Shown: piece after piece, positions 14,410 to 56,369 of the stretch
Layout of the letters: each line of letters opens with the position of its first letter
How positions within the stretch are numbered: the stretch's first letter is position 1
Source: Eggerthellaceae bacterium
Lineage (GTDB): Bacteria > Actinomycetota > Coriobacteriia > Coriobacteriales > Eggerthellaceae
Length of the DNA stretch: 64,000 bases
Reading direction: 5' to 3'
NCBI GenBank assembly: GCA_050951095.1
Contig: JBMNIQ010000002.1
Span: forward strand, 239,099-303,098
Translations under genes and position numbers: made by a program
The notes under the pieces: model-generated
What the model saw: only the letters and a program-made list of their open reading frames with translations
Databases searched by the model: none
Told to the model about the DNA's origin: nothing

Positions 14410-15153
14410 TGGGCTTTCCATCCCCTCCCCATCTTTAAATGCCGATAAGGCGTCTGTTCCGCTTGCCCATGAAAGATGCCTCGGCAAAGCAAGTGAATGT
14501 GCGAGCCGATTGGGGCGGGCAAGCGGGAAACGTGGAGAGATGACACGCAGAAACGCTATCTAGATACCATTTCATAGCAGATGTCAATCTCTTCCCGGTA
14601 AAACAATTAATAGATAGCATATTTTACTAAGGTTGTCACTTAGCAAGATAATGGCAATGTGTTTGGGATTACAGCTTTGAATATTTGTGCGCTGCATCGT
14701 TATGAGCTTCTGATTAGGCGCTACTCGCCAGGCTTCGCCCGCTATCTCAACGCGTGGTAGTACGCGATGGCAATCTGAGTGCGGTTCTCCAGGCCTCGTT
14801 CGAACTTATGGCCTCGAACGTGCAGGGCTTGGCGCAGCTCACGCCGGGATATTGGCGCAATGAGGTGCTGACAATTGCGTTTACAACAAGCGATTGAAGT
14901 GTCCTGGCAGGTCGGGTAACGACGGATTTGGGTATGCTAATGCTGTTTGCTGTGGTGACGGCGCTGGTGGGAATGGCATTGTCGCGGGTGCATGCGCTGT
15001 GTTCGACAAGGGCGGTGTAGACGGCTCGTACGGCTGAGTAGAATCGAGGGTATTGTTTTGTGGGCAGGGATGCGGCCTGCTTAGAGTTTCGTCGTTTCCG
15101 TTTTGAATGGTTAGTGAGAAAAGCGTCGATAACGTTTTCAAGAAGAGGAGCAA

Positions 15154-15507
15154 ATGATGCAAGCGACCGATTGGCAAACGTTCGTGTCGATGTATCAGGC
15201 CTTGGACGCGGCATACGACGAAGGGAAACCCCAAAAGGTCTTCTCGTTCATCGCCGATGCCAACCCTAACATCTGGAAAGGCAGGGTTTCGGGCGATCCA
15301 GCCGTCTTCTCCGAGTTCTCGGAAGCCTTCGCCGAGCGCTTCCCGCAGGGGAAGGCGGATCCCGCCGCAGCGGCGGAGTTCGCGCGAGCGTTCCTGTCAA
15401 AGCAGAACGCGGAGTACGGCTGGGCGAAAGGTGACCTCGTGGCGTCCTTCGACTCCGTCGTGACCCCCGAGCTTTGGGAGAGGGCCCTTTCCGAGGCTCC
15501 TGAGTAG
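15154..15507 (+). CDS. Hypothetical 117-aa acidic protein (paralogue of 16122-16478)
   Basis: GAGGAG RBS upstream. The two copies differ at ~28 synonymous codons versus 5 replacements (hand alignment), which supports real coding. Confidence 0.65.
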   Translation: MMQATDWQTFVSMYQALDAAYDEGKPQKVFSFIADANPNIWKGRVSGDPAVFSEFSEAFAERFPQGKADPAAAAEFARAFLSKQNAEYGWAKGDLVASFDSVVTPELWERALSEAPE

Positions 15508-15532
15508 TTGAACGACAACCGCTCAACCAAAA

Positions 15533-15618
15533 GCAGGTCAGAGGAAAAATGTCCTCTGGCCTGCATCATTTCATGGTGCCCCCGGGCGGATTCGAACCGT
15601 CGACACCCGCTTTAGGAG
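15533..15618 (-). repeat. att copy 1: terminator hairpin plus 45-nt 3' segment of tRNA-Arg(CCU)
   Basis: 15574-15618 is identical to 27547-27591. The hairpin at 15533-15564 matches 27506-27537. Confidence 0.85.
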
Positions 15619-15778
15619 TGGGTCGGAGGGGTGTACTCGCATACGTATGGATTGCAAAACGCCTGTTCAGAGCGGTATGTGTCGGTTGGCGAAGGTAAAG
15701 AAAATCCTGCCTCCGCCAGGGTTTCTGGCCATTTTATGGCCATGAACGTCTCTGCCTAGACGGTATTTCGGAAGCCTC

Positions 15779-15835
15779 GGTGACGATGGTGACGATAGTG
15801 ACGATGGTTCACATATAGGAGTCTTCATCGTCACC
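15779..15835 (+). repeat. GTGACGAT palindromic module P1
   Basis: GGTGACGATGGTGACGATAGTGACGATGG-TTCACATATAGGAGTCT-TCATCGTCACC. Confidence 0.8.
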
Positions 15836-16121
15836 GGCGATCCAATTGAAGCGGCGACCGGCTCGCGTCTCCGGTCTCGCTTGCACTGGGATTCCGCTGT
15901 AAATCTTCATGCTCGGCAACCCGAACGCGCAGCGAGCGCAAAAGAACGCCTCGGCATGCGAGAATGCTTGAAGATGGATCCCAGTTATGGGCATCGGTCC
16001 TTAATGGTGTTGTGCAAAACTGCGGGAAGAACGACCCTCCGCACTCCTGGGACGACGAAACGGGGCTGAGTCGAAACATTAGCAAAACCGCCGATAACGT
16101 TTTCAAGAAGAGGAGCAAATA

Positions 16122-16478
16122 ATGCAAGCGACCGATTGGCAAACGTTCGTGTCGATGTACCAGGCCTTGGACGCAGCATACGACGAGGGGAAATCCCAGA
16201 AGGTCTTTTCGTTCATTGCCGACGCTAACCCGAACATCTGGAAGGGTAAGGTGTCGGGCGACCCGGCTGTCTTCTCTGAGTTCTCGGAGGCCTTTGCCGA
16301 GCGCTTCCCGCAGGGGAAGGCGGATCCCGCCGCCGCCGCGAAGTTCGCGCGAGCGTTCCTGTCCGAGCAGAACGCGGAGTATGGCTGGGCGGAAGGCGAC
16401 CTCGTGGCGTCCTTCGATTCCGTCGTGACCCCTGAGCTTTGGGAACGTGCCCTTTCCGAGGCTCCTGAACAACCATAA
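16122..16478 (+). CDS. Hypothetical 118-aa acidic protein (paralogue of 15154-15507)
   Basis: Same RBS context as the other copy. About 96% amino-acid identity with mostly synonymous nucleotide differences. Confidence 0.65.
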   Translation: MQATDWQTFVSMYQALDAAYDEGKSQKVFSFIADANPNIWKGKVSGDPAVFSEFSEAFAERFPQGKADPAAAAKFARAFLSEQNAEYGWAEGDLVASFDSVVTPELWERALSEAPEQP

Positions 16479-16582
16479 ACGACAATCGCTAACGATAGTA
16501 GGATAGAGAAAGATGCCTCTGTTCCGCCGCTTATGGTCTAAATTTGGCACATTATCCGAAATCGATGTCTTCGAAGCAAAAA

Positions 16583-16667
16583 GCAGGCCAGAGGTAACAC
16601 GTCCTCTAGCCTGCGTATTTACTGGTGCCCCCGATACGATTCGAACCGTCGACACCCGCTTTAGGAG
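16583..16667 (-). repeat. att copy 2: diverged terminator hairpin plus 45-nt tRNA-Arg 3' segment
   Basis: 16623-16667 matches 27547-27591 with 4 mismatches (ccgatacg vs ccgggcgg). Confidence 0.8.
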
Positions 16668-16827
16668 GGAAACGGGGAGGGCGAGGACGTTCGCAAAGAT
16701 TGAAAAACGCCTGTTCAGAACGGTGCCCGTCCATCAACGGCGGTGAAGAAAACCGGGATTGAAGCGGAAATTCGGGCCAAATTCGGGACGGGGCCGACCC
16801 TCGGAGAACGACGGGATGGCCCATGCA

Positions 16828-16866
16828 GGTGACGATGGTTCACATATAGGGGGTTTCATCGTCACC
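16828..16866 (+). repeat. GTGACGAT palindromic module P2 (single-repeat version)
   Basis: GGTGACGATGG-TTCACATATAGGGGGTT-TCATCGTCACC. Confidence 0.8.
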
Positions 16867-17022: not shown

Positions 17023-17331
17023 ATGGCGAGGGACAACGAGAGGGACGCGAGGGTCTTCAAGGCGTTCTGCAACGAGTACCGCCTCCAGGTGCTCGAGAGG
17101 CTGCGCACCGGGGAGAAGTGCGCCTGCGACCTGCTGGATCACATCGACATCAGCCAGTCGAACCTCTCGCATCACATGAAGATCCTCGTGGACTCGGGCG
17201 TGGTGTCGGCGCGCCAGGACGGCAAGTGGACCCACTACTCCATCGACCCGGAGGGGGCCAGGGCGGCGGTCGAGCTGCTCGAGGAGCTCACGACGATCCG
17301 CGGCGGCGGAGGTGGCTGCTCCTCCTGCTAG
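17023..17331 (+). CDS. arsR: ArsR/SmtB-family metalloregulator
   Basis: Winged-HTH with a CAC metal site (EKCACDLLDHIDISQSNLSHHMKILVDSGVV) and a C-terminal CSSC. Confidence 0.9.
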   Translation: MARDNERDARVFKAFCNEYRLQVLERLRTGEKCACDLLDHIDISQSNLSHHMKILVDSGVVSARQDGKWTHYSIDPEGARAAVELLEELTTIRGGGGGCSSC

Positions 17332-17386
17332 GGAGGGAGCCGTTCGACGAAGAGCCGCCGCGCGCGGCGTTTTTCTGGGCCAACAC

Positions 17387-17402
17387 ATCAAAATTTTTCG
17401 AT
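17387..17402. promoter_or_regulatory. Candidate ArsR operator 2
   Basis: Same 16-mer as 16993-17008, 21 nt before the acr3 ATG. It is preceded by a GC hairpin plus T5 (17353-17376). Confidence 0.5.
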
Positions 17403-17422
17403 ATGTGAAGGAGACAATCAAC

Positions 17423-18490
17423 ATGAGTCCTAGCGAAAACAGGAAGGGCGCGGCGTCCGGCCTCGGGCTTTGGGACCGGCTGCTCACCCTCTGGATCTTC
17501 CTGGCGATGGGAGCCGGCATCGCCATAGGGGCGGCGTTTCCGGGGTTCTCGGAGGTCCTCGGGGGGCTCTCGATGGGCACCACCAACGTGCCGATCGCCG
17601 TCGGCCTCGTTCTCATGATGTACTCGCCGCTCGCCAAGGTTCGCTACTCGGAGATGCCCAAGGTCTTCGCCGACAAGAAGCTCCTCGCGCTCTCGCTCCT
17701 GCTCAACTGGGTGGTCGGGCCGCTCCTCATGCTCGCGCTGGCCGTCCTGTTCCTCGCGGACATGCCCGAGTACATGGCGGGCGTCGTCATGATCGGGCTC
17801 GCCCGCTGCATCGCGATGGTCCTCGTGTGGAACGAGCTCGCCGGGGGCTCATCGGAGTACGCGGCCGGGCTCGTGGCCCTGAACGCCGTCTTCCAGGTCC
17901 TCCTCTACGGGCCGATGGCCTGGCTGTTCCTCTCCGTGCTCGCCCCCGCGCTCGGCGCCCGGGCGGTCGCCGTCGACGTCTCCATGTGGCAGATAGCCCA
18001 GGGCGTCCTCGTCTACCTCGGCGTCCCTATGGCCGCCGGCGCGCTCACCCGGCACCTGGGCGTGAGGGCGCTCGGCGAGGAGGGGTACGCGCGGCGCGTG
18101 ATCCCCAGGATATCGAAGATCACCCCGGCCGCGCTGATCTTCACCATCGTGGTCATGTTCTCGCTGAAGGGCGGAATGATAGCGACGCTGCCCTACGACG
18201 TCGCGAGGATCGCCGTCCCGCTGGTCGCCTACTTCTGCACCATGTTCTTCGCCAGCTCCTGGCTCGCGCACCGGGCCGGGGCCGACTACCCGCGCATGGC
18301 CTCGGTGGCCTTCACCGCTACCGGCAACAACTTCGAGCTCACCATCGCCATCGCCGCCGCCACGTTCGGGCTCGCCAGCGGGCAGGCCCTGGCGGCCGTC
18401 GTGGGGCCCCTGGTCGAGGTCCCCTCGCTCATCCTGCTGGTGAACGCCGCGCTCGCCCTGAAGCGGCGCTGGTACGAGGGGAAGGGGTAG
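17423..18490 (+). CDS. acr3: ACR3-family arsenite efflux transporter
   Basis: Start at MSPSENRK (ATG 17423, GAAGGAG upstream). It is a ten-helix protein with an ACR3-type N-terminus (LGLWDRLLTLWIFLAMGAGIAIG). Confidence 0.85.
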   Translation: MSPSENRKGAASGLGLWDRLLTLWIFLAMGAGIAIGAAFPGFSEVLGGLSMGTTNVPIAVGLVLMMYSPLAKVRYSEMPKVFADKKLLALSLLLNWVVGPLLMLALAVLFLADMPEYMAGVVMIGLARCIAMVLVWNELAGGSSEYAAGLVALNAVFQVLLYGPMAWLFLSVLAPALGARAVAVDVSMWQIAQGVLVYLGVPMAAGALTRHLGVRALGEEGYARRVIPRISKITPAALIFTIVVMFSLKGGMIATLPYDVARIAVPLVAYFCTMFFASSWLAHRAGADYPRMASVAFTATGNNFELTIAIAAATFGLASGQALAAVVGPLVEVPSLILLVNAALALKRRWYEGKG

Positions 18491-18493
18491 CGG

Positions 18494-19495
18494 ATGGAGG
18501 CGTTCGGGTCGTTCGTCATGGACCAGCTGCTCAAGATGCAGTGGCTGAGCGGGCTCGTATGGAGGCTCCTGTCGCCCCTCGGGCTGACGGAGGGCACGCA
18601 ATGGGGCGAGACGCTCCACTTCTTCGTGTACGACACGGCGAAGATCGTCATCCTGCTCGTCACGATGATATTCGCGATCGGGTACGTCCAGAGTTTCTTC
18701 CCGCCCGAGCGCAGCCGCAGGATCATGGGGCGCTTCAGGGGGTTCTGGGCCAACGTCGTGGGCGCGCTCTTGGGTACTGTCACTCCGTTCTGCAGTTGCA
18801 GCTCGATCCCGCTGTTCATCGGGTTTACGAGGGCGGGGCTGCCGCTGGGGGTCACCTTCAGCTTCCTCATCTCATCCCCTATGGTCGACCTGGGGAGCCT
18901 CGTGCTCATCATGAGCATCTTCGGGCCGGGCGTGGCAGCCGTCTACACGGTCGTGGGCCTGATGATTGCCATCTTGGGCGGCGCGTTTATCGAACGCCTT
19001 CACATGGACGACCAGATCGCCGACTTCGTGCGGGGAGACGCGCCCACCGACGCCGAGCTCCTGGCCATGAGCGTGCGCGACCGGCTCGCCTTTGCGGGGC
19101 GCGAGACATGGTCGACCTTCAAGAAGGTGTTCCCCTACGTCCTCGCCGGCGTCGCGATAGGCAGCCTCATCCACAACTGGATACCTCAGGACGCCGTCGA
19201 GCTCGTGCTGGGCGACCAGAACCCGCTCGCGGTCGTGCTGGCCACCGTCGTCGGCGCCCCCATCTACGCGGACACCTTTGGCGCCATCCCCATTGCCGAG
19301 GCGCTCTACTACAAGGGGACGCAGCTGGGCACGGTTCTGGCGTTCATGATGAGTGTCACGGTGCTGTCCATCCCCAGCTTGACCATGCTCTCGCGGGTTG
19401 TGAAGCCCAAGCTCCTGGCGACGTTCGTGGTGGTCTGCATGGTGGGGATGATTATCAGCGGATATGTCTTCAACTTCCTACAGCCCTTGTTATAG
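18494..19495 (+). CDS. UPF0718/ArsP-like permease with a TPFCSCSS motif
   Basis: Polytopic protein with the motif GTVTPFCSCSSIPLF. It is followed by the small redox-active disulfide protein that typically partners this family. Confidence 0.75.
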   Translation: MEAFGSFVMDQLLKMQWLSGLVWRLLSPLGLTEGTQWGETLHFFVYDTAKIVILLVTMIFAIGYVQSFFPPERSRRIMGRFRGFWANVVGALLGTVTPFCSCSSIPLFIGFTRAGLPLGVTFSFLISSPMVDLGSLVLIMSIFGPGVAAVYTVVGLMIAILGGAFIERLHMDDQIADFVRGDAPTDAELLAMSVRDRLAFAGRETWSTFKKVFPYVLAGVAIGSLIHNWIPQDAVELVLGDQNPLAVVLATVVGAPIYADTFGAIPIAEALYYKGTQLGTVLAFMMSVTVLSIPSLTMLSRVVKPKLLATFVVVCMVGMIISGYVFNFLQPLL

Positions 19496-19549
19496 GAGGA
19501 GCTTCTCAATAGCTGTCCAAGACACAGGCGTTTTGAAAGGAGAAAAACG

Positions 19550-19774
19550 ATGACAAAGGTTCAGGTAATGGGCTCGGGGTGCAAGAAATGCCGCCAGCTC
19601 TACGAAAACGCCGTGGAGGCGCTGGGCGAGGACTCCGTTGAGTACGTCACCGACATGGAACGCATCGCAAATGCCGGCATAATGACCACACCAGCCCTGG
19701 TAGTCGACGGAAAGCCCGTGAGCACGGGCAAGGTGCTCAAGCCCTCCGAGATTTCTGCCCTGGTCTCGGACTGA
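19550..19774 (+). CDS. Thioredoxin-fold small protein (redox-active disulfide protein 2 type)
   Basis: 74 aa with CKKC near the N-terminus (MGSGCKKC) and the TPALVVDG motif. Confidence 0.8.
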   Translation: MTKVQVMGSGCKKCRQLYENAVEALGEDSVEYVTDMERIANAGIMTTPALVVDGKPVSTGKVLKPSEISALVSD

Positions 19775-19778
19775 TTCT

Positions 19779-19822
19779 GAGGGGCAGCCGCGCGGACCGG
19801 CGTCAATCGCGGCTGTCCCCTC
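19779..19822 (+). terminator. 14-bp-stem hairpin after the ars cassette
   Basis: GAGGGGCAGCCGCG-15 nt-CGCGGCTGTCCCCTC. There is no clear U-tract. Confidence 0.45.
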
Positions 19823-19927
19823 TGCTGACACCGCTGCGCACTGGTAAAACCGCACAGCAGTCCTCCTCGCTCCACAGAGGTCGGAGCTGATACCACCGTC
19901 TTCGAAATCGGCGAAACCGTCTCCGGT

Positions 19928-20191
19928 GTGTCAATCGTCAACGATATCGCCGACGTGTACGGTAACGGCGTCCACGTGGCGAGACTCGAGTACCCTCAAG
20001 CTGTGGCTTTCGACACCGACGGCGGGGTGCTCATGCTGGACAAGGAGGTCTGGTTCTCGGAGATAACCGCCATCAAGAGGGGCGACGGCATCGACGGGCT
20101 CCTATACGACGACTCAGCCAGCTGGGAGGACCGACCGGACGAGGACCCCACGACCCACTACGAGTTTCTAACGGAGATGCAGGAACTCTAG
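19928..20191 (+). CDS. Hypothetical acidic 87-aa protein
   Basis: ORF only, with a GTG start. No motif recognised. Confidence 0.3.
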   Translation: MSIVNDIADVYGNGVHVARLEYPQAVAFDTDGGVLMLDKEVWFSEITAIKRGDGIDGLLYDDSASWEDRPDEDPTTHYEFLTEMQEL

Positions 20192-20237
20192 GTAAGTGAT
20201 GACTTTACCGACGCCTTCTTCAATGCATGGTCATCCC

Positions 20238-20292
20238 GTGACGATGGTGACGATAGTGACGATGATTGATATATAAGGGGCTTATCGTCACC
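20238..20292 (+). repeat. GTGACGAT palindromic module P3 (abuts the integrase 3' end)
   Basis: GTGACGATGGTGACGATAGTGACGATGA-TTGATATATAAGGGGCT-TATCGTCACC. Confidence 0.8.
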
Positions 20293-20355
20293 GTTGGCTC
20301 GATCGACCGGAGGCCGCCCCTCTTCTTGGTTTCCGCAGCGGTGTTTCTACGCTGC

Positions 20356-21720
20356 TTAGCCGGCTGCTCGCATGACGAATTCGTCCAGATCGCAGAGCTT
20401 GGCGCACTCCGTCACCACGAGCCCCGCTCCGTTGCATTCCTTGGCCCAGCAAGCGCCACGCGTTGCATCGTCGGGGGACTCCGTCCATTGCCTGCAGTTG
20501 CGACATTGGGTTTCATTGCCATTCGGCGCGACTAGCGTGCCTATTCTCCGCGCCGCCTCGCGCTTCCACTCGTCGTTGGTGTGGGTGTAGACGCTGTACG
20601 CCTGAAGGCTCTTGTGCCCGGAGAGGTCCCGTGTTGTCCTCTCGTCCATGCCGCAATCACGCGATAGGAAGGTCACATAGGTGTGGCGAAGGCCGTGGAA
20701 CCCAAACCCTTCCGGCACCGGGTAGCGCTTTCGCTCCTGCGCGAACCATCGGTCGAACCGCGCCTGCTGCACGTGGTTTCCCTTGCTGCTGCTGACGATG
20801 GGCATCCCGGTGCTCCATTTCAGGCCGACCTCGTCGCACCATTCTTGCTGGCTCTCCCGCCAACTCTCTAGCAGCGGAACGAGCGGAGGCGGGCAGGGAA
20901 CGATGCGCTCCTCGCCGTTCTTCGTGGACTTGGTCCTCTGGCTGTTCTTCTCCAGGCTGCGGCGGACGTCGAAAAGCCCCCTGTCGTAATCGTCCCAAGT
21001 GAGGGCGAGGACCTCGGAAAGGCGGAACCCGCACATCAACGCGAGGAGCACGCCCATCGGCAGCGCCGCGGGAGGCTCCGATGCGATCAAATCAAAGAGT
21101 TCCTGCGCCTGTCTCGGCGTGAGCGCAGACTTCTCAGGAGTGTCGTTCTTCGGTATGGTCGCCTTGTCGCATGGGTTCACGGTAATGAAGCCGTAGTCGA
21201 TCGCCTTGTTGAACATGCACGAGAGCACGCTATGGGTACGTCGCAGCGTCGTGCCGCTGTAAGGCTTTCCTCTGGGGTTAAGCTTGCCACCGGTGCGCAT
21301 CTCAGCGTACATCTTGTCGATGCTGAGGCTCGTTACCTGATCAAGGCGCTTTTTGCCGATATAGGGAATGGTTCTCGATAGGCATTCGCGGTCAGTTCTC
21401 ACCGTTCGGTTCGAAACGACCATCTGCCCCGCTCTCAGCTCGCAGTACGTCTCCGCGAACTCGCGCACAGTGGGAATGTGCTTGGCATCCTTCCGCCTCG
21501 CGTTGCGCCTGTATTCGGAGATGTTCGCTCGGTTGCCCCCGTGGTAAACGAAGTCGTTAATTTCCTTGAGGACGGAAACCGCTTCCGCCTCGCTCTCGAA
21601 ATCCTCCTGGTAAGCCTCGTACCGCTTCGTCTCATCGTTCCAACCGAGGGGGTAGCGAATCTGCCAAGTGCCGCTATTCCGTTGCCGGAAACTGCCCTTG
21701 TTATGCGGGATCTGCGCCAT
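20356..21720 (-). CDS. int: Tyrosine recombinase/integrase with a ~75-aa Cys-rich C-terminal tail
   Basis: Start at MAQIPHNKG (ATG 21720). Catalytic signature: GFRLSE (R), HGLRHTY (HxxR), GHKSLQAYSVYTH (H..Y). The tail is CRNC..C..C..C..C. Confidence 0.85.
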   Translation of the reverse strand: MAQIPHNKGSFRQRNSGTWQIRYPLGWNDETKRYEAYQEDFESEAEAVSVLKEINDFVYHGGNRANISEYRRNARRKDAKHIPTVREFAETYCELRAGQMVVSNRTVRTDRECLSRTIPYIGKKRLDQVTSLSIDKMYAEMRTGGKLNPRGKPYSGTTLRRTHSVLSCMFNKAIDYGFITVNPCDKATIPKNDTPEKSALTPRQAQELFDLIASEPPAALPMGVLLALMCGFRLSEVLALTWDDYDRGLFDVRRSLEKNSQRTKSTKNGEERIVPCPPPLVPLLESWRESQQEWCDEVGLKWSTGMPIVSSSKGNHVQQARFDRWFAQERKRYPVPEGFGFHGLRHTYVTFLSRDCGMDERTTRDLSGHKSLQAYSVYTHTNDEWKREAARRIGTLVAPNGNETQCRNCRQWTESPDDATRGACWAKECNGAGLVVTECAKLCDLDEFVMRAAG

Positions 21721-22897
21721 CGGCCCCCGCGGCCTTCCTGCGGTTGGCATCGCGCACGCGGCATGCGTCGCTGCAGTAGTCCTTGCGCGTTCCCCGCTCG
21801 TTGGAGAGCACGGCGTTGCCGCAGAGGCGGCACACGGTGATCCGCTTGCCCTCGTGGTACGAGAGCGCGTACCAGAGCGCCGAGGCGAACGAGCGGCACA
21901 GGATGCGCGGGGCGTCGATGTTCTCATGCTCGCCGGAAACGTCGTACTCCCAGCCCGCCTTCTCGCCCTCGAGGTCCAGGTTCACGTACTCGTAGCTGAA
22001 CGACTCGACCACGGAGCGGGCCATCGCCCCCTGGTCCCCGGAGTCCTCGACGCAGAGGTAGAGCGTCCGGTCCTCAGCCGGGACGCGGTTGGGGCGGAAA
22101 AGGCTCCCCCAGGAGGGCAGGTCGTCGGTGGCGAGGGGCTTGGTGGTGAAGAACACGCCCTCGTTTCGGGGGTCGGGATAGCTCGGCGTTATGTCGCCGA
22201 CTCCGGGGATGCTCGTCGCGCGCCTCGCCTTCGGGGCCATCGCCGAGAACAGCGGGTCAGAGGCCGCGTCCACCGCCGCGCTCTTGGCGGGCTTGGCGAA
22301 GAACGGGTTGAACTTGGCAGGTATCACGAGCAGGGGCGCGCCGATGCGCTTGTTGTCAACGCGCTCGAAGCCGGCCTTCGCGAAGATCTGCGGCTCGCCG
22401 CCCTCCATGAGGCCCTTGAGCCTTAGCGCCGTCGAGAGCTGGTTGCGCACGGCCATCCAGTCCTGCACGGGCTCTACCAGGACGGTGAACTCGTCGGAGA
22501 GCGAACCCATGCGCTCCGCGGCCCCCGCGCCGTCGCGGCAGTACTTCTCGACGAACTTCCCGAGCGCGAGGCCGTTGGCTCGCAGGCCCTCGGCGGAGTC
22601 CAGGAAGAGCTCGGCAGCAAGCACGTCGGCGTCGCAAGCGGTGAAGACGGCGGAGAGGAGCTTCGCGGCGTCCGCCGGCGCGAGCATGCGGGGAACCCCC
22701 GCCAGGCTCTCGACGGCGACGATCGGGGGCAGGCCGTCGACGATCTGCACGAGCGCCCCGGGGGCCTTCACGGCGAGGAGGGCGTTGAGCGCGGAGGGGT
22801 CCGGCTCGAAGCTCTCGCGCCTCGCGACGTCGGCGGGCACCGCCCTGACCAGGTAGTGCGTCCTCGTCTTTTTGTTCCTCGTGATGCAGGCGAGCAT
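21701..22897 (-). CDS. Orphan 398-aa protein with a C-terminal zinc-ribbon (CRLC...CSDAC), co-transcribed with int
   Basis: Its stop overlaps the integrase start by 20 nt. No family was recognised by eye. Confidence 0.6.
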   Translation of the reverse strand: MLACITRNKKTRTHYLVRAVPADVARRESFEPDPSALNALLAVKAPGALVQIVDGLPPIVAVESLAGVPRMLAPADAAKLLSAVFTACDADVLAAELFLDSAEGLRANGLALGKFVEKYCRDGAGAAERMGSLSDEFTVLVEPVQDWMAVRNQLSTALRLKGLMEGGEPQIFAKAGFERVDNKRIGAPLLVIPAKFNPFFAKPAKSAAVDAASDPLFSAMAPKARRATSIPGVGDITPSYPDPRNEGVFFTTKPLATDDLPSWGSLFRPNRVPAEDRTLYLCVEDSGDQGAMARSVVESFSYEYVNLDLEGEKAGWEYDVSGEHENIDAPRILCRSFASALWYALSYHEGKRITVCRLCGNAVLSNERGTRKDYCSDACRVRDANRRKAAGADGADPA

Positions 22898-23047
22898 GCG
22901 GGCCCCCTAGATGATCAAGTTACGTCTTTTAGGTCAGTATACCGTTAAATTACGCTATTGCAACATGCTTAGCCGTATGTGATAATCGCGCTAACGGCAT
23001 AATTATAAACGATGCTGTTAACCGTAAATCGAAGAAAGGAGCGAAGG

Positions 23048-23248
23048 ATGGACGAGCTGCTCAACCTCACGGAGGCGTGCGAGGTAATGCACGTGTCCTA
23101 CTCGAAGGGCCAGAAGCTGGCGAAGGCGGGCGCGCTGCCGTTCCGAAAGCTGGGAGCGACCTGGTACATATCCCGATCGGCGCTCTACCGCGAGCTCGGG
23201 ATGGAGGCACCGCGCGGTAAGGAGGAGGACGAGAAGACATGCGCATAG
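23048..23248 (+). CDS. Excisionase-family HTH DNA-binding protein
   Basis: LLNLTEACEVMHVSYSKGQKLAKAGALPFRKLGATWYISRSAL. AAAGGAG RBS. Divergent from the ORF398-int operon. Confidence 0.75.
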   Translation: MDELLNLTEACEVMHVSYSKGQKLAKAGALPFRKLGATWYISRSALYRELGMEAPRGKEEDEKTCA

Positions 23249-23352
23249 ACGAAACGCCCGCCGCGGCCGGTGAAATCTTGGCGGAAGACACGGCCGGGCA
23301 GGCGCCTGCGCCCGGAATCATACCATCCGGCACCGATGCGGGGGCGATGTAG

Positions 23353-23556
23353 ATGGCGCGCAGCTTCTTCTCCGACATGCTCGCCGATGAGCGCCTTCTG
23401 AGCAAGCACGGGCTCGACGCGTGGCCAGAGGAGCGCGAGCTCGCCCGCTACCTGTTCGACCTCGAGGGCAAGGTGGACGCGATCGCCAGGGCGAGCGGCC
23501 TCGCGGTCGAGAAGGACGTGCGGGGCAACTGGCAAGTCTCCCGCCTGGGGCGGTGA
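23353..23556 (+). CDS. Hypothetical 67-aa protein
   Basis: ORF ends 6 nt before the AAA ATPase start. No motif recognised. Confidence 0.4.
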   Translation: MARSFFSDMLADERLLSKHGLDAWPEERELARYLFDLEGKVDAIARASGLAVEKDVRGNWQVSRLGR

Positions 23557-23561
23557 GCCCC

Positions 23562-24566
23562 ATGGCAGCAGCGCTCGAGACGCACGACGCCCAGTGGCTG
23601 CTCGAGCAACCGCTTCCGAAGCACAGCTGGCTCGTGGAGGACCTGATCTCCTCCGGGCTCGTGCTCCTCGTGGGCGCGCCCAAGATCGGGAAGTCGTGGG
23701 CCTCGCTGCAGCTCGCCCTGGCCGTGAGCACCGGCCAGCCGTTCCTCGGGTTCGCCACCACGCAGGGCGACGTGCTCTACCTCTGCCTCGAGGACACCTT
23801 CCAGCGCGTCCAGCAGCGCCTGTTCCGCCTCACCGACGAGGCGAACGACCGGCTCCACTTCGCCGTGGACGCCGAGAAGCTCAGGTGCGGGCTCGTCGAG
23901 CAGCTCGAGGCCTTCGCCGGCGCGCACCCGAGCCTGCGGCTCGTCATCGTGGACACGTTCCAGGCTGTGCGCGTTCCCACGGCGGAGAGCGCCTACAAGG
24001 CGGACTACGGCGACCTGGGCGAGCTCAAGAGGTTCGGCGACGAGCGCGGGATAACCGTCGTGGCGGTGCACCACACCAGGAAGATGGGCGACCCGTCCGA
24101 CGTGTTCAACACGGTCTCGGGAACCAACGGGATCACGGGCAGCGCCGACGAGACCATGGTGCTCGCCAAGGCCAACCGCTACGACGGCACCGCCACCCTC
24201 AACGTCACCGGGCGCGACGTGGAGATGGCCGAGTACCGGCTGCGCTTCCGCGACTGCCGCTGGGAGCTCGTGGGCAAGACCAGCGAGGAGGAGCTCGAGG
24301 AGCGTGAGACGCCGGACGCCGTTCTCGCCGTGCTCGACTTCATGGCGGGCAACGTGACGGGTTGGCGCGGGACCGCCACGAGGCTCATAGCGGACGCGGG
24401 GATAGACGGGGTCAGGCCCAACGTGCTCTCGAAACTCCTCAACGAGCACAGCGACTTCATGGCCGAGCGGGGCGTGCGCTACTCGAGCACCAGAACGAAC
24501 GCAAGCCGCATGCTGCGCCTCGAGAACGTGCCTCCCGAACAATCCCGAGGGCGAGAATCGCGATGA
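23562..24566 (+). CDS. RecA-fold AAA ATPase of the RepA/AAA_25 type (island replication protein candidate)
   Basis: Start at MAAALETHD (ATG 23562). Walker A LLVGAPKIGKSW, Walker B LRLVIVDTFQ, sensor VVAVHHTRK. Confidence 0.75.
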   Translation: MAAALETHDAQWLLEQPLPKHSWLVEDLISSGLVLLVGAPKIGKSWASLQLALAVSTGQPFLGFATTQGDVLYLCLEDTFQRVQQRLFRLTDEANDRLHFAVDAEKLRCGLVEQLEAFAGAHPSLRLVIVDTFQAVRVPTAESAYKADYGDLGELKRFGDERGITVVAVHHTRKMGDPSDVFNTVSGTNGITGSADETMVLAKANRYDGTATLNVTGRDVEMAEYRLRFRDCRWELVGKTSEEELEERETPDAVLAVLDFMAGNVTGWRGTATRLIADAGIDGVRPNVLSKLLNEHSDFMAERGVRYSSTRTNASRMLRLENVPPEQSRGRESR

Positions 24567-24650
24567 TGGCAAGTAGCCTGATTCGTGCGCACAACGCTCA
24601 AATCGGGCGCTCGCCGGGATGCAGCTTGTTGCAGGTTCACGGGACAAAAC

Positions 24651-24846
24651 AGCACAATAGTGTGCTCTTTTGCCCCAGGATTTCCGTGCAGCAAGCTACC
24701 CATTGTGTGACACAAATCGTCACACAATGGATTTCGCATCGTTGATAGCAAGCTACCTATTGTGTGCGCACAAAGCGCGCACACAATCCCCGCTTGCCCG
24801 AAGGCCCGGGTCTCCCCACGCCCCGCCACTATGGAGGGTGGCGGGG
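24651..24846. promoter_or_regulatory. Cluster of hairpins/iterons sharing the CACACAAT/ATTGTGTG motif (candidate origin or operator array)
   Basis: Hairpins lie at 24651-24666, 24700-24730 (12-bp stem), 24759-24787 (11-bp stem) and 24821-24846. The two middle ones are each preceded by GCAAGCTACC (24691, 24748). Confidence 0.5.
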
Positions 24847-24991
24847 CCCGCCGGGCCTTCTCTCTTCGGCGATGCGATGTGGGGGGAGCCCCCGCGCCCC
24901 TGGGACAGAACAAAGCCCGAAAACCCACAGGCCGGAACCCCACACTCTCGGGTACCATTGGAAAACGGAAACCGATCACCCGGGAGCAACC

Positions 24992-25735
24992 ATGCCGATA
25001 GAATTCCGCGACGACTTGCCTTATGACCCGACCGACAAAAAGTCGGTAATCGCATATGCCGGCGCGCTCGTCGGCCACACGCTGCGCGAGGCGACCGACG
25101 CCGGCTCCATCGAGGTCCCGAAGGTCCGCCGCGGAGCTTTCGGCGACAGCGTCGAGTACAGCTACTTCGGAATCGAGCCGAACAGCGTGCAGGGCCCCGA
25201 TTTCCCCGAAGCGGGGCTCGAGCTCAAGACGACCCCGTTGAAGATGACCAAATCGGGCAAGCTCGCCGCCAAGGAGCGCCTCGTCATCACCATGATCGAC
25301 TACATGTCCGTCGTGGACGAGGAGTTCGAGACCAGCACGCTCGTCGACAAGGCGAGGGATATCCTGCTCGTCACCTACCTCTACGAGAGGGACAAGGACC
25401 CGCTCGACTACGTCGTGGAGCTCGCCACGGAGTGGGGCCTCCCCGAGGAGGACATGCCGGTGTTCAAGGAGGACTGGGAGACCGTCGTCGGCAAGGTGCG
25501 CGCGGGCAAGGCGCACGAGATCTCCGGCAGCGACACGCTCTACCTGGAGGCCTGCACCAAGGCGTCCGACTCGTCCATCCGGCGCAAGCAGCCCTTCTCG
25601 GACGTTCCCGCCAAGCAGCGCGGGCGCGACTTCGCAATCATCCTGTCGTGCCTGGCCGAGGAGGGGTACTCCGTGGAGTGGCGCGTGATCAACGCCGCCG
25701 AGTACGGCATGCCCCAGAAGAGGCGCGCGCAGGCG
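24992..25735 (+). pseudogene. Dead R-M system: Sau3AI/MutH-type endonuclease N-terminal part fused to an internal fragment of a C5 cytosine methyltransferase
   Basis: MPIEFRDD... contains DFPEAGLELKTTP and YLEACTKA (MutH/Sau3AI-like). After ...SDVPAKQRG the frame continues as DFAIILSCLAEEGYSVEWRVINAAEYGMPQKRR (Dcm motif VIII context), then it is cut by the IS. Confidence 0.6.
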
Positions 25736-27003
25736 CTCGCGTTTATCGCCTGGCGCGCTATCGCGAGCGCCTGCGCGCGCCTCTCCTCGCCGATCTCGGC
25801 GGGCTCCGGCCGCTCCGCGTAGAGCTCGGCGATCTTGCCGGCGGCGAAGTAGCGGGCCTCCGACCATTCCTCGTCCTGGTCGCACATCACGGCGCCCACG
25901 AGCCTCAGCAGCGAACCCGCAGACGGGAAGACCTGCACCACCCTCGACCTGCGCTTTATCTCGCGGTTGGTGCGCTCCTGCAGGTTGTTGGTACGCAGGC
26001 GCTTCCAGTGGGACCGCGGGAAGTCGAGGTACGCCAGCGCGTCCGGCTCGGCCTCCTCCATGATCGCCGCCGCCCTCGGGCAGCAGCCCTCGAGCATGTC
26101 GATGGCGACGTGGTACATGGCTCGGACGACGTCGGCGTCCTTTGCCCTGAACACGGGCGCGATTATCCTGGCGACGCGCCTGGAGAGCGGGCCGCGCCCG
26201 GCCTCGCGGATGCAGTTGCGCATCAGGTGCACGGCGCACCGCTGCCAGGCGGCGCCCTGGAACGCCTCTGCGATCGCGCGCTTTAGCCCCTCGTGGGCGT
26301 CGGACACGACGAGCTCCACGCCGCAGATGCCGCGCTCCCGCAGGCTTCTCAGGAAGGCCGTCCACGAGTCGTAGGACTCGGTGTCCACCACGTCGAAGCC
26401 CACGACGTGGCGCCAGCCGCCGTCGTCGCAGCCGATCGCGGTCACTACGGCGGTGGAGGCGACGTGCCCCTCCGACCTGCACTTGACGTAGGTGGCGTCG
26501 AGCCACAGGTAGGGCATCCTCGTGCCGCGCAGGTCGCGGCCGAGCAGCTCGTCGGCCTCGGCGTCCAGGCTCTGCGCGATGGCGCTCACCTGGTCCTTCG
26601 ACAGGCGCTCGATCCCCATCTTCGCCGCGACCTTGGCGACCTTGCGGGTGCTGGTGCCGGTGGCGTACATCTCCGCGACCGTTGCGGCCACCGCGCGGTC
26701 GACGCGCTGGTATCGCTCGATGACGTCCTCGGGGAAGAAGCTGCCGCTCCTGAGCTTGGGGATGCGCAGCGTGAGCGTGCCGACGCAGGTCGCGAGCTTG
26801 CGCTCCCTGTAGCCGTTGCGGGCGTTGCCGGTGGCGCCGCACAGCTGGTCGGCCTCGGCGCTCATGATCTCGTTCACCAGCGTCTCGGCCATGCACCTGA
26901 TGAGCTCCTGCATGTTGACGGTGCCGTCCGCGAACCTGGGCATCTGCTGGGGCGCCGGCGCGGTGACGGCCGCGTTCTCTGGTATGATTTCCATCGTGGT
27001 CAT
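25540..27003 (-). CDS. tnp: IS256-family (mutator-type) transposase; the last ~75 codons probably read through the IS end
   Basis: MTTMEIIPE... matches the typical IS256 layout (ADQLCGA, YLWLDATYVK, VVSDAHEGLK, WQRCAVHLMRN). Family proteins are ~410 aa. Confidence 0.85.
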   Translation of the reverse strand: MTTMEIIPENAAVTAPAPQQMPRFADGTVNMQELIRCMAETLVNEIMSAEADQLCGATGNARNGYRERKLATCVGTLTLRIPKLRSGSFFPEDVIERYQRVDRAVAATVAEMYATGTSTRKVAKVAAKMGIERLSKDQVSAIAQSLDAEADELLGRDLRGTRMPYLWLDATYVKCRSEGHVASTAVVTAIGCDDGGWRHVVGFDVVDTESYDSWTAFLRSLRERGICGVELVVSDAHEGLKRAIAEAFQGAAWQRCAVHLMRNCIREAGRGPLSRRVARIIAPVFRAKDADVVRAMYHVAIDMLEGCCPRAAAIMEEAEPDALAYLDFPRSHWKRLRTNNLQERTNREIKRRSRVVQVFPSAGSLLRLVGAVMCDQDEEWSEARYFAAGKIAELYAERPEPAEIGEERRAQALAIARQAINASACARLFWGMPYSAALITRHSTEYPSSARHDRMIAKSRPRCLAGTSEKGCLRRMDESDALVQASR

Positions 27004-27082
27004 TGCCTTTCACTCGAACCTGACTTGTCGTGATTTCAGATTCTAGGCGATGGCCACACCCTTTCACAGCGGCGCTATCGCG
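25750..27082 (-). mobile_element. IS256-family insertion sequence (boundaries approximate)
   Basis: Contains the transposase ORF. An 11-bp direct repeat GCGCTATCGCG at 25755-25765 and 27072-27082 may be the target duplication. I could not confirm terminal inverted repeats. Confidence 0.6.
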
Positions 27083-27286
27083 CCTCGGCCCTTACACCAA
27101 CTTTTCCGACGCGATCGCGCCTTCTGCATGGGCAACGCGCTCGTCGTGGGCATTCCTCATCGGATTGGAACAATCATAGCGGGAGAGCAAGAAGGGTAAT
27201 TTCTGGACTCGATGCCTGTTCGCATTCAGCGACTTCGGTGCATTGAAAGAACGCGACTGAAGGTATTGAGATCCAACCCATGGCCC

Positions 27287-27343
27287 GGTGACGATAAGAC
27301 CCTCTATATCGAAAAGACCGTCACCATCGTCACCATCGTCACC
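27287..27343 (-). repeat. GTGACGAT palindromic module P4 (inverted relative to P1-P3)
   Basis: The reverse complement reads GGTGACGATGGTGACGATGGTGACGG-TCTTTTCGATATAGAGGGTCT-TATCGTCACC. Confidence 0.8.
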
Positions 27344-27505
27344 GTTTCGCTGTAAGTAGGCTGAACCGGAGCGGTCTCCTGTTTCGCTAAATGGCGTAAA
27401 CGTCGGTTGCCGACGTGTGCTATCTGCGTCCATTTGTCGAGCTCATGAAAGAAATTCTGGCCAAATTCTGGCCATCGGGCCGAAAAGTATCCCCTAAAAC
27501 GCAAA

Positions 27506-27537
27506 GCAGGTCAGAGGAAAAATGTCCTCTGACCTGC
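27506..27537 (-). terminator. Terminator hairpin of tRNA-Arg
   Basis: GCAGGTCAGAGGA-loop-TCCTCTGACCTGC, followed on the minus strand by TTTGCGTTTT. Confidence 0.7.
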
Positions 27538-27546
27538 GGTTTCATC

Positions 27547-27622
27547 TGGTGCCCCCGGGCGGATTCGAACCGTCGACACCCGCTTTAGGAGAGCGGTGCT
27601 CTATCCCCTGAGCTACGGAGGC
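27547..27622 (-). tRNA. tRNA-Arg (anticodon CCU), CCA encoded
   Basis: The hand-folded cloverleaf has acceptor GCCTCCG/CGGGGGC, anticodon stem CCGCT/AGCGG, loop CUCCUAA and T-loop GGTTCGAATCC. Confidence 0.9.
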
Positions 27623-27665: not shown

Positions 27666-29618
27666 TTAATTGCTCGATTTGCTGCTCTTGGATGAGCTGC
27701 TGGAGCTCGACGAAGAGCTTGAGCTGCTGGAACTCGAAGAGCTGCTGCTGGATTCCTCCACCGTCAGGTAGATGGTGTCGCCCTTCGACGCGGACGTGGG
27801 GGAGTAGCCGGTTACCGTGCCACTTGTGCTGCTTGCACTTACCTTGAACCCTGCAGCGCGCAGCGTGCTGGTAGCGGACTTCACGGACATGCCGGTGACG
27901 TTCGGAACATCCACTTCATTCGGGCCCGTGCTGACCACGATGGTGATCGTGGAGCCCTTGTCGGCCTGCGAACCACCCGACGGGTTCTGCGAGATAACGT
28001 CGCCCTTGCTTACCGTGTCGCTGGAATCGTTCGTGACGTACACTTCGAAGCCGGCGTTGCTCAGCGTGCTGGTAGCCGAACTCTGGCTCTGGCCGGTGAC
28101 ATCCGGCACGGAGACCTGCGAAGGACCAAGCGAAACAACGTACGTGACTTCGCTGCCCTTATCTACCAGCGTATTTGCCGACGGGTCGGTGCTGATGATC
28201 TTGCCCTTGGCAACCGTATCGGAATTCTGCGAATCGCCAGCCGTAGCGGTCAGGCCTGCTTCCGTCAATGCGGCAACGGCCTTCGCCTCCGACTTGCCGG
28301 TCACGTCGGGCACGTTCACCTGCTCTGTGCCCTTCGACACGTTGATGTTCACACGCGTGCCCTGATCAGCCTGCGTGCCTGCCTGCGGGTCCGTGCTGAC
28401 AACCTTGCCCTTTTCGACGGTGGTGCTGTACACCTCCGTGACGGTGCCGATGGAATAGCCGTCGCTCGACAGCGTCTGCTCGGCGGTGTTCAGCTCCTGG
28501 CCGGTGACATCCGGCACGGTGTGCGTATTCATCATGGCCCAAGCGGCATAGCCGATGGCTGCGGCAATAAGGAGCAACAGGATAACGATGAGCGCCTTCT
28601 TCTTGCCGCTCATCTTCTGCTTCTTGCCGCTGTTCGCACGGAAGTCCGTCTTATGCGAAGCCGGCTGGTTGTCATCCTTAATGGCATTCATGACCTTCGT
28701 GGTACCGGCGCCGGCGGGCACATAGGCACCAGCAGGGGCGGCAGCCGTATTCATCTGCTGCGTCCGCGCTTCGGAGAAGCGGTTGCCCAGGCGTCCCGCC
28801 AGGTAGTCCGTCAGCACCTGGCGCATTTCCAGAGCGGTGGAGAAGCGACGGTTCGGGTCCTTCTCCATGGCCTTCATGATGATGCTTTCCAGGTTCGGGT
28901 CGATGTCGGGTACCCAATGGCTGGGCGGCTCCGGCGTCTCCTTCACCTGCTTCATGGCAACGCTGACGGCATCGGGGCCGTCGAACGGCAGATGGCCGGT
29001 CACGGCTTCGTACATGACAATGCCCAGCGAATAGATGTCGCTTGCAGCGGTGAGCTCCTTGCCCTGCGCCTGTTCCGGCGAGATGTAATGCGCCGTTCCC
29101 AGCACGGACGAGGTCTGCGCCTTCATGGAGTTCTTCGCGCGTGCAATGCCGAAGTCCATGACTTTGATGTTGCCATCAGGCTGAATCATGATGTTCTGCG
29201 GCTTGATGTCGCGGTGGATGATGTCCAGATGATGGGCTACGCTCAGCGCCTGGCATACCTGGGAGCCGATCTGCGCCACCTTGCGTTCGCTGATGGCGCC
29301 GCGCTCCTGGATAGCGGTCTTAAGGTCGGATCCGCGCACGTACTCCATGACGATGTAGTACGTGCCTTCGTCCTGACCCCAGTCGTAAACATTGACGATA
29401 TAAGGACTCTGCAGGTTGGCGGCAGCAGAGGCCTCTTGTCGGAAACGACGGGTGAAATCGGGATCTTCCGCGTATTGAGGGAGCATGACCTTCACGGCCA
29501 CCACTCGGCCGAGCACGTTGTCCTGGGCACGGTAAACCTCTGCCATGCCACCGATGCCAATGCGCTCAGTGATGCGGTAACGTCCGTTGAAGGTTCTGCC
29601 AACCATGTTTCCGGCCAC
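27666..29618 (-). CDS. pknB: Ser/Thr protein kinase with four PASTA repeats and a C-terminal poly-Ser tail
   Basis: [22 protein letters not shown], DFGIA and SPEQ motifs. A TM helix is followed by four ~65-aa PASTA units. GTG start behind AAGGAG. Confidence 0.92.
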   Translation of the reverse strand: [650 protein letters not shown]

Positions 29619-32506: not shown

Positions 32507-33685
32507 CTAATCGGCGGTCGATGAAGAGGAGCTGCTGCTACTCGAGCTGCTCGACTTCTTTTCGTTCTGCTTTTTCTTCTGCGCGGTTGCCTGGGCAGCT
32601 TCCTGCGCCGCCTTGGCTTCGCTCTCGTATTCGGAAACCAGGTTCGCGGCCTCGTCGAGGTTGTCCACCTGGATGTTCTGCTTGATGTGCTCCTGCACGC
32701 CGGGCTGCAAGTCGCTCAGGCTGACGTCCGTCACATAGCTGAGCTGCGACGTCTCTATGCCGAAGATGGCCCCGGGTGTGCCGGTGTACACGGCCACCTT
32801 GCCGTCTTGCTCGCCGATGTACGCGCTGTTGCTGAAGTAGTAGTACGCGCCCGCGCAACCGCCGGCGATGACTGCCGCCAGCAGCAGGATGATGAACGTC
32901 CACCACAGGCGCGAACGGCGTGCGATGCGCTTGCGCGTGGCCACCGTGTCGCCCACGATGTCCACGACCACGACCGTGACGTTGTCCAGGCCGCCGGCGC
33001 TGATGGCATCGTTGACCAGGGCGCTTGCGCAGCGTTGCGGGTCGCGAATACGGGCCAGCTGCGACTGGATGCGGCTGTTCTCCACCATGCTGTACAGGCC
33101 GTCGCTGCAGAGCAGCAGGCGGTCGCCGGGGGACGCCGTGATTTCGTACAGGTCGGGTTGCATGTTCGGGTCGCTGCCGATGGCGCGCGTGATGATGGAG
33201 CGGTTCGGATGGACGCGGGCTTCCTCTTCCGTGAGTCGGCCGGCCTCTACCATGTCCGCCACCAGGCTGTGGTCGCGCGTCAGCTGCTGCAGCTTGCCAT
33301 GGTGCAGCAGGTAGGCGCGCGAGTCGCCCACGTGTGCGATGGCCAGATGCGTGCCTTCGATGACGCATGCCGTCATGGTGGTGCCCATGCCGGCAAGTTC
33401 GGCGCGCAGCGCTTCGTTGATTACGGCGTGATTCGCCTTGATGACCGCTTCGCCCAGCATATCCACATCTGCGGTGGTCGGCGCGTTCTTCATCAGGACC
33501 TTGACGGCGAGCTCGGACGCAACATCGCCGGCGGCATGACCTCCCATGCCGTCCGCTACGGCGAACAGCGGAGGCGAAACCGCCAGGCTGTCCTCGTTGC
33601 GTTCGCGCACGCAGCCAACGTCGGTGCGGCTGCCGAAAATCGCGTGGGTGCGCGGCATTTTCTGCTTCAAAGGATTGCGTGGCAT
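32507..33685 (-). CDS. pstP: PP2C-family Ser/Thr phosphatase with a TM anchor and extracellular tail
   Basis: [23 protein letters not shown] and LLLCSDGL motifs, a TM helix, and a tail ending in poly-Ser. Confidence 0.9.
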   Translation of the reverse strand: [392 protein letters not shown]

Positions 33686-56360: not shown

Positions 56361-56369
56361 AAAACTTAG

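Follow-up and report, generated by a model that had tools for sequence, protein, structure and literature searches.

The region between positions 20,238 and 27,546 of a 64,000-nucleotide (64-kb) stretch of DNA from a gut Eggerthellaceae bacterium (contig JBMNIQ010000002.1 of assembly GCA_050951095.1; the whole stretch is hereafter the window) is probably a member of an undescribed Coriobacteriia family of integrative and mobilizable elements (IMEs), integrating at tRNA-Arg(CCT) and belonging to a sub-lineage that lacks a relaxase, for which we propose transfer by hitch-hiking; the copy in the window is degraded. As judged from the sequences compared here, the element is less likely to be a phage satellite than a mobilizable element in reduced form, because its relatives carry genes for the hijacking of conjugation. 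A previous sequence-only reading had described the region as a compact satellite resembling phage-inducible chromosomal islands (PICIs). The order of features that it gave, from an int-proximal repeat cluster ('P3') through the integrase gene (int), ORF398, a divergent control region, a helix-turn-helix (HTH) gene, a 67-aa open reading frame (ORF), an ATPase gene and iterons to a restriction-modification (R-M) remnant and an insertion sequence (IS), was recovered in full, each feature lying at or near the place assigned to it (Table 1). Its picture of a compact site-specific integrative element, in which an int operon diverges from a xis/ATPase operon followed by ori-like iterons and decayed cargo, also stands, whereas the assignment to PICIs or other satellites is not supported.

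The evidence for the IME family comes from conserved gene order. A five-gene core, in which ORF398 and int diverge from the genes for an HTH_17 protein, the 67-aa ORF and the ATPase, recurs in at least ten lineages of Coriobacteriia, and every distant relative with enough sequence carries mobilization genes directly after the replication ATPase, which is of the AAA_25 type in the family and of the VapE or IstB type in two lineages. These modules code for NikA/MobC, for a relaxase of the MobA/VirD2 or MobL type and often for a type IV coupling protein (TraG/VirD4), and it is because of them that the family is regarded as a family of IMEs, of which the relaxase-less copies of the window and of the two related loci L007 and L018 would form a sub-lineage. 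In a Raoultibacter metagenome-assembled genome (L012) the ATPase is followed by NikA/MobC, an 87-aa ORF, a TraG/VirD4 coupling protein, a MobA/VirD2 relaxase and R-M cargo; in L021/L020 by NikA, a coupling protein and a relaxase; in Denitrobacterium (L011/L008/L009) by NikA/MobC and a relaxase; in L003, where the ATPase position gives a weak VapE/DUF5906 match, by a MobL relaxase and coupling proteins; and in L004-6 by a NikA-like protein. The survey of homologous islands for conserved synteny that the sequence-only reading had proposed thus returned the core, but with relatives that bear relaxases rather than supporting a satellite, and the connection to conjugation, which that reading had named as grounds for its refutation, came through this synteny and not through profile matches.

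The features by which IMEs are recognised are distributed accordingly between the window and its relatives. An integration and excision module of its own is present (an intact int and an Xis-type HTH gene) and no complete type IV secretion system (T4SS) is found; direct attL and attR repeats flank the element in L018, and the window has attL together with attR-type copies at 16623-16667 and 15574-15618. A relaxase and/or origin of transfer (oriT) module was not found in the window, while relaxase or NikA genes are present in L012, L021, L011, L003 and L004. Profile searches of the nine ORFs between 19928 and 27433, together with tblastn, detected no capsid, terminase or conjugation gene among the element ORFs, in agreement with the earlier statement to that effect.

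The main alternative weighed was a satellite lifestyle, in which the relaxase-less element would be a minimalist phage satellite of the type of the PICMIs (phage-inducible, minimalist chromosomal islands): a helper phage would induce the HTH_17/AlpA-type protein, Int and ORF398 would excise the element, the ATPase would replicate it from the iterons, and the resulting concatemers would be packaged in helper capsids with no packaging or capsid genes of the satellite's own. The layout speaks for it, since the 6.06-kb copy in L018, with ORF398 overlapping int, the divergent HTH_17, 67-aa ORF and ATPase genes and one further 193-aa ORF (ORF193), resembles that of PICMI115; so do the movement and recombination of the element between hosts with no relaxase of its own, the presence of a phage-like region in the same window, and the weak PHROG matches of the ATPase to the helicase part of phage primase/helicases. 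We nevertheless consider it improbable. All more distant relatives with enough sequence bear relaxase modules, neither ORF398 nor the ATPase found a relative in pattern-based scans of IMG/VR, and the 'phage' database matches of the ATPase are IME-like. The island shares no DNA or protein similarity with the resident phage-like region, so no cos or pac mimic is apparent. Neither satellite model fits in its details: the element does not lie next to fis and its ATPase lacks a DUF3987/DUF5906 primase domain, both of which the PICMI model calls for, and the terS and capsid genes of a PICI are absent. The absence of these genes and of viral relatives leaves the PICI assignment unsupported.

The database entries of nominally viral origin deserve a closer description. 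ATPase homologues in L023, L024 and L058 adjoin relaxases. MT836902.1 (L023) and MT838398.1 (L024), both filed as 'UNVERIFIED Bacteriophage sp.', carry respectively an int, AAA_25, a MobA/MobL relaxase and TnpV, and AAA_25, NikA, a relaxase and a serine recombinase, whereas in MN270279.1 (L022) the AAA_25 homologue is accompanied by tet(O)/tet(40), ParB and a site-specific recombinase. The three records are entered under 'Bacteriophage sp.' or 'Streptococcus phage', and their matched regions look like DNA of IMEs or integrative and conjugative elements (ICEs) rather than of phages. An exact scan of IMG/VR for three copies of the GTGACGAT 9-mer, a repeat of the element described below, gave 36 matches, 35 of which had no relative of an island protein at E<=1e-3, save a weak ATPase match in L033 (E 1.2e-6); the remaining one is L058 (IMGVR_UViG_3300029420_000106, 6304-12065), a relaxase-bearing IME with AAA_25 (36% identical to the island ATPase), a nikA-like gene, a relaxase gene, two int genes and tRNA-Arg(CCG), located beside a prophage lysin gene.

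Several observations weigh against the placement in an IME family and moderate our confidence in it. By tblastn, no relaxase, NikA or coupling protein gene, nor a remnant of one, is present in the window, and no conjugative helper is visible within its 64 kb. The iteron region shows no sequence similarity to any part of the mobilization-bearing relatives, where the iteron motif is absent, and this leaves an oriT in that region unproven. The relaxase-less core matches the layout of PICMI satellites gene for gene (PMC10803314), and the GTGACGAT array in L058 lies far from the att site.

A comparison of the copies in the window, L018 and L007 shows that the relaxase-less form is no wreck. Each of the three has the five core genes intact and with the same lengths, and dN/dS is 0.13-0.26 for four of them and 0.33-0.46 for the 67-aa ORF. 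Divergence is mosaic, with dS ranging from 0.045 to 1.28 by gene and pair: between the window and L007 it is 0.078 for ORF398 and 0.94 for int, whose products share 73% identity, and ORF398 and the promoter region are 95-100% identical while the chromosomal flanks are at about 79-81%. Intact genes, low dN/dS and mosaic divergence together point to a sub-lineage maintained by purifying selection and exchanging modules between hosts. These elements of five or six genes might even be self-sufficient minimalist hitch-hikers of a new kind, either the first PICMI-like satellites of an anaerobic Gram-positive gut lineage or elements in which ORF398 supplies a novel excision or transfer function. We hold this to be doubtful; were it so, the arrangement of an int-overlapping gene diverging from alpA, a small ORF and a replicase would be an ancestral core shared by IMEs and minimalist satellites.

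The boundaries of the element became clear from L018, where the arrangement is that of the window without the IS and the R-M genes. An intact tRNA-Arg(CCT) gene (2688-2763) is followed there by the element and by a 47-nt fragment of the tRNA 3' end (8776-8822, with the terminator to 8875), so that the intact relaxase-less element measures 6.06 kb with both attL and attR, in agreement with the earlier estimate of about 6 kb once the IS is discounted. In the window, no direct repeat of the tRNA 3' end was found beside 20238, which is the edge of a repeat cluster and not an att end. The window aligns to L018 up to 19875 and resumes from 19764, and at this break about 700 nt are missing, where L018 has the N-terminal half of ORF193 along with a (1+1) repeat site and the core of attR with its terminator; the absence of a tRNA repeat beside 20238 is thus explained by a deletion of about 0.7 kb that removed the element's own attR.

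Beyond this scar, the locus is a tandem accretion of about 12 kb at tRNA-Arg, composed of the element, an arsenic-resistance (ars) island and a remnant of about 1 kb, each ending in a tRNA-Arg 3' fragment. The two additional fragments each have a GTGACGAT site at 162 nt, which is the ground for this reading. The core of the outermost one (fragment A, 15574-15618) is identical to the tRNA 3' end in 45/45 positions, and fragment B is 84% identical over 89 nt to a query of tRNA plus terminator. Homologous segments of about 440 nt (15119-15558 and 16084-16521, 87.6% identical), encoding ORFs of 116 and 118 aa, follow one after each fragment, and with the fragments they point to repeated accretion at the site. 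The ars island, 94.8% identical to its copy in L018 (8973-12154), looks like a cis-mobilizable element (CIME) travelling with the element, because it ends in a repeat site and a tRNA fragment of its own. Tandem accretion, CIMEs and IMEs with nothing but an oriT have been described before (PMC5704250, Guedon et al. 2017; PMC12084326, Faecalibacterium mobilome 2025). A search for an empty site, using the tRNA terminator as an exact pattern in metagenome contigs, gave 0 matches.

The same observations bear on whether the window copy is an immobile, decaying remnant that will never excise, its conserved genes reflecting recent decay or a role beneficial to the host. Degradation is evident: the attR has been deleted, the R-M genes are dead, truncated and disrupted by the IS, and ORF193 is cut down to the C-terminal ORF87. 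Moreover, three assemblies of the source species carry an identical, fixed arrangement; the window agrees at 99.99-100% identity with a JGI metagenome contig (Ga0534105_00125 of 3300053716). We regard permanent immobility as unlikely all the same, considering that over three lineages purifying selection acts on the five core genes, all of them intact, and that the core copies at 15574-15834 (45/45, with a 3+1 cluster) and 16623-16865 could act as attR for a composite excision. In addition, the array of ars island and element is shared with the L018 host (94.8% and 84.6% identity), whose stretch upstream of the tRNA gene has no blastn match to the window. On the IME reading, the window copy could leave only together with the ars island, as a composite of about 11-12 kb for which fragment B or A would serve as attR.

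The repeats that mark these junctions are strongly over-represented. The window contains 19 copies of the GTGACGAT 8-mer where 2.27 would be expected, 14/19 of them lying in four clusters, and the palindromic site occurs three times against 0 expected. Clusters of the 9-mer lie 160-200 nt on either side of the att core in inverted orientation, and also directly after int. The pair at 20238-20293 and 27286-27343, which might be taken for 'terminal inverted repeats', is best read as P- and P'-arm clusters to which a recombinase would bind. The array may be bound by a protein other than Int, because in L058 a 3+3 array of the 9-mer sits between AAA_25 and the nikA-like/relaxase operon, 4.6 kb from the tRNA gene. 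The integrase itself shows the RxxE, HGLRH, GH and Y motifs and continues past the catalytic Tyr into a Cys-rich extension of about 55 aa (20356-20520; CRNCRQW...CWAKEC...C..C), which is 91% identical in L018 and 54% in L007, where the repeat motif differs (ATGACGAT). Covariation of the repeat motif with the N-terminal domain of Int was considered and rejected, identities being 63-66% regardless of motif; only the C-terminal extension, which lies in physical linkage with the site, follows the motif.

Inverted clusters could also be crossover sites of a tyrosine recombinase, in which case the 7-kb segment would be an invertible cassette that flips instead of excising. The two clusters are indeed inverted copies with a palindromic, core-like structure, and in L007 (7860-12940; a sister species) and L017, where ars/thioredoxin and tRNA-Arg/pknB likewise form the flanks, the core points the other way and its int gene adjoins the tRNA-proximal cluster. 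Assemblies of one lineage (3 and 2) agree in orientation, L007 has a single repeat cluster, the direct tRNA-fragment repeats of L018 are those of ordinary attL/attR integration, and clusters occur as well where the ars island and the remnant have their attR-type ends, all of which makes such a cassette highly improbable. Recombination between the two inverted clusters followed by deletion may account for the orientation in L007 and L017.

ORF398 is the least familiar component of the core. Nothing significant was found for it in Pfam, NCBIfam, PHROGs or PADLOC, and a profile search of the PDB gave zinc-finger noise only. Its C-terminus carries a CxxC...CxxxC zinc ribbon, and E142 and the four cysteines are invariant. 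Close homologues are few, but a profile search of 1.8 billion representative proteins recovered 273 relatives at E<=1e-3, so that the family comprises at least 273 clusters at 50% identity; a second, word-indexed search with a 40-sequence profile returned just 6 proteins. An AlphaFold2 model built from a 40-sequence alignment reached a predicted local distance difference test (pLDDT) score of 91.8 and a predicted template modelling (pTM) score of 0.91, whereas an earlier, weaker model had a pLDDT of 72.5. Foldseek found no neighbour for either model in the PDB, nor for the first model in BFVD (best E about 0.3-0.6, and 0.6 for the model of pLDDT 91.8), and only the C-terminal zinc ribbon resembles YacG/DUF1470. 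In at least ten lineages the homologue lies directly upstream of int or overlaps it. ORF398 represents a new integrase-coupled family with a confidently predicted fold and no PDB neighbour. By analogy, because its position equals that of the iolg gene needed for excision in PICMIs, we infer that ORF398 may be an excision/integration or regulatory cofactor of Int.

The divergent region, already described as AT-rich and 150 bp long by the sequence-only reading, has a GC content of 0.43 over the 114 nt measured (22898-23011) against about 0.65 around it, and contains two promoter-like sites with a common palindromic TTGCAA -35 element, for which 0.3 occurrences are expected. The HTH_17 protein scores 28.0 bits with the TIGR01764 'excisionase' model, below the cut-off of 28.8, and also matches excisionase PHROGs. 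Among PDB sequences, the ATPase is best matched, at a weak E=0.0034, by the RSF1010 RepA helicase; Pfam gives PF13481 only, and no primase domain was found in Pfam, PHROG or PDB sequence searches. The iteron/hairpin cluster, which the earlier reading had correctly located 3' of the ATPase gene, spans 345 nt, with three iterons of about 21 nt (consensus TAGCAAGCTACCTATTGTGTG) and perfect hairpins; its single-stranded fold is much more stable than those of shuffled sequences (z=-7.3), and it is kept in L007 and L018. One ATCGTCAC copy of the 'arm' 8-mer lies in the loop of a perfect 12-bp hairpin of this region (24716-24723).

From these components we propose a mechanism in which Int would integrate and excise the element at the tRNA-derived core, the HTH_17 protein would act as a directionality factor or switch, and ORF398 would be an int-coupled accessory factor. 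The RepA-like ATPase would replicate the excised circle from the adjoining iteron/hairpin region, and transfer would occur by hitch-hiking, most likely through a relaxase acting in trans and a T4SS on an oriT within the hairpin region.

Table 1. Features of the tRNA-Arg(CCT) locus in window coordinates
Feature	Position	Strand	Remarks
tRNA-Arg 3' fragment A with terminator hairpin	15530-15618	-	attR-type repeat at the outer end of the array
GTGACGAT repeat cluster, 3 direct + 1 inverted	15780-15834	+	P-arm-type; distance to fragment A 162 nt
tRNA-Arg 3' fragment B with terminator hairpin	16580-16667	-	attR-type repeat closing the ars island; core copy 16623-16667
GTGACGAT palindromic site (1+1)	16829-16865	+	162 nt from fragment B
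ars island	17023-19774	+	In tandem with the element
ArsR	17023-17331		ars island
SBF/ACR3-type carrier	17405-18490		ars island
ArsP permease	18494-19495		ars island
Thioredoxin-like protein	19550-19774		ars island
Deletion scar	19765-19874		Stands in place of about 700 nt kept in L018
ORF87	19928-20191	+	C-terminal remainder of the 193-aa ORF of L018 (ORF193); no family match
int-proximal repeat cluster ('P3')	20238-20293	+	Three GTGACGATN and one inverted copy; inverted copy of 27286-27343
Tyrosine integrase (int), 454 aa	20356-21720	-	PF00589 (E=3.6e-16); phrog_1 (E=1.5e-61)
ORF398	21701-22897	-	20-nt overlap with the start of int
AT-rich divergent control region, 150 bp	22898-23047		Promoter-like sites back to back at 22936-22986
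HTH_17 protein (Xis/AlpA/MerR-type), 66 aa	23048-23248	+	PF12728
67-aa ORF	23353-23556	+	Conserved in the family; no family match
AAA_25 RecA-fold ATPase, 334 aa	23562-24566	+	PF13481 (E=1.4e-30)
Iteron/hairpin cluster	24560-24905	+	Candidate oriV and/or oriT
Dead R-M	24992-25726	+	N-terminal half of a Sau3AI/MutH-type restriction endonuclease (24992-25612) fused to a dcm fragment (25613-25726)
IS256-family (Transposase_mut) transposase ORF	25540-27003	-	PF00872 (E=2.7e-105); interrupts the R-M cargo
Possible C-terminal remnant of a C5-methylase	ca. 27092-27199		
tRNA-proximal GTGACGAT repeat cluster	27286-27343	-	P'-arm-type; 203 nt from the tRNA 3' end
tRNA-Arg(CCT)	27547-27622	-	3' 45 nt (27547-27591) form the att core (attL); terminator hairpin 27510-27537

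For the IS256-family element, terminal repeats and a target duplication were sought and none could be made out. Two further assignments of the island were rejected: an actinomycete integrative and conjugative element, the island ORFs having no FtsK_SpoIIIE, RepSA or prim-pol Rep match, and a plasmid-partition system, the defining genes of which are absent. The prophage that had been noted in the same window corresponds to a phage-like, GC-rich region (56284-63000; GC 0.68-0.72) that begins after a tRNA-Met gene and, from about 57.5 kb, holds a primase/helicase gene (57524-60048) and fragments of terL. The latter is split over overlapping ORFs (61645-62352 and 62324-62935), which suggests a frameshift or decay. 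Elsewhere in the window, a PknB-like kinase (27666-29618) and a PP2C phosphatase (32507-33685) bear long poly-serine tails at their ends.

Small islands with an integrase but lacking transfer genes abound and for the most part go unclassified. The present case illustrates how one of them can be assigned to an IME family by its synteny with distant relatives, and how a relaxase-less derivative can be kept by selection and still swap modules between species. It further defines a widespread, uncharacterised family of integrase-coupled proteins, with at least 273 clusters, that occupies the iolg position of PICMIs; if ORF398 were a general cofactor of excision or regulation, the biology of IMEs and of minimalist satellites would be linked. 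For the window copy itself, partly decayed and located in a tRNA-Arg accretion hotspot with an arsenic-resistance island, the practical message is modest.

Among the known systems, PICIs are defined by five core components, of which four or more are needed (SatelliteFinder, PMC10085698). The island has two to three, at most three: the integrase (PF00589, phrog_1), a regulation module (PF12728, excisionase PHROGs) and, in place of a primase-replicase, an AAA_25 ATPase with matches to the helicase part of PHROGs and no primase domain. No small terminase was matched in the nine ORFs at 19928-27433, nor any structural gene for capsid morphogenesis among the element ORFs. It resembles PICIs and the Staphylococcus aureus pathogenicity islands (SaPIs) in the int gene, the divergent regulator/xis region, the replication gene followed by ori-like repeats, the small size and the cargo, and differs from them in the lack of terS, of a capsid-morphogenesis gene, of a primase-replicase domain and of an Stl-like HTH repressor, ORF398 having no HTH. 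PICMIs are closer in layout. PICMI115 of Vibrionaceae, of 6,110 bp, has iolg overlapping int, a divergent alpA-up1-prim operon and one cargo gene, and iolg is needed for excision (Barcia-Cruz et al. 2024, PMC10803314). The island shares with it the size of about 6 kb, the six genes with one for cargo, the lack of capsid and packaging genes, the combination of int and AlpA (PF05930/PF12728), an overlapping gene upstream of int (iolg there, ORF398 here, likened by position) and a divergent operon of AlpA/HTH_17, a small ORF and a replication protein. It differs in that this protein is a helicase-type ATPase matching PF13481 only and not a DUF3987/DUF5906 primase, in its Gram-positive anaerobic host, in its target, which is tRNA-Arg(CCT) rather than a site beside fis, and in its relaxase-bearing relatives.

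In ICEBs1, immR-immA-int is divergent from xis and the genes downstream of it. In the island, too, an accessory or regulatory gene lies upstream of int in its operon, and a xis-led operon that runs into DNA-processing genes diverges from it, which indicates that the mirrored, 'PICI-like' arrangement is generic to integrated elements, although the island is far smaller and has no ImmR/ImmA homologues or conjugation genes. From IncQ plasmids such as RSF1010 it differs in the weakness of the RepA match, in that a RepB primase and a RepC initiator were not identified in the island, and in its chromosomal integration by a tyrosine recombinase, but it shares with them a RepA-like AAA_25 ATPase beside iterons, which in the relatives also lies beside a NikA/MobC-relaxase module. 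Compared with described IMEs, the island sub-lineage is distinguished by the lack of a relaxase, of an accessory gene and of a demonstrable oriT, by its integrase-overlapping 398-aa protein and its RepA-like AAA_25 ATPase with iterons, and, in the window copy, by the loss of the cognate attR. With these elements it has in common (PMC5704250, PMC12084326) its own tyrosine integrase, an Xis-type HTH protein, a target at the 3' end of a tRNA gene, marked by direct repeats, tandem accretion alongside decayed elements, the absence of T4SS genes, R-M and ars cargo, and relatives that carry NikA/MobC, a relaxase and a coupling protein.

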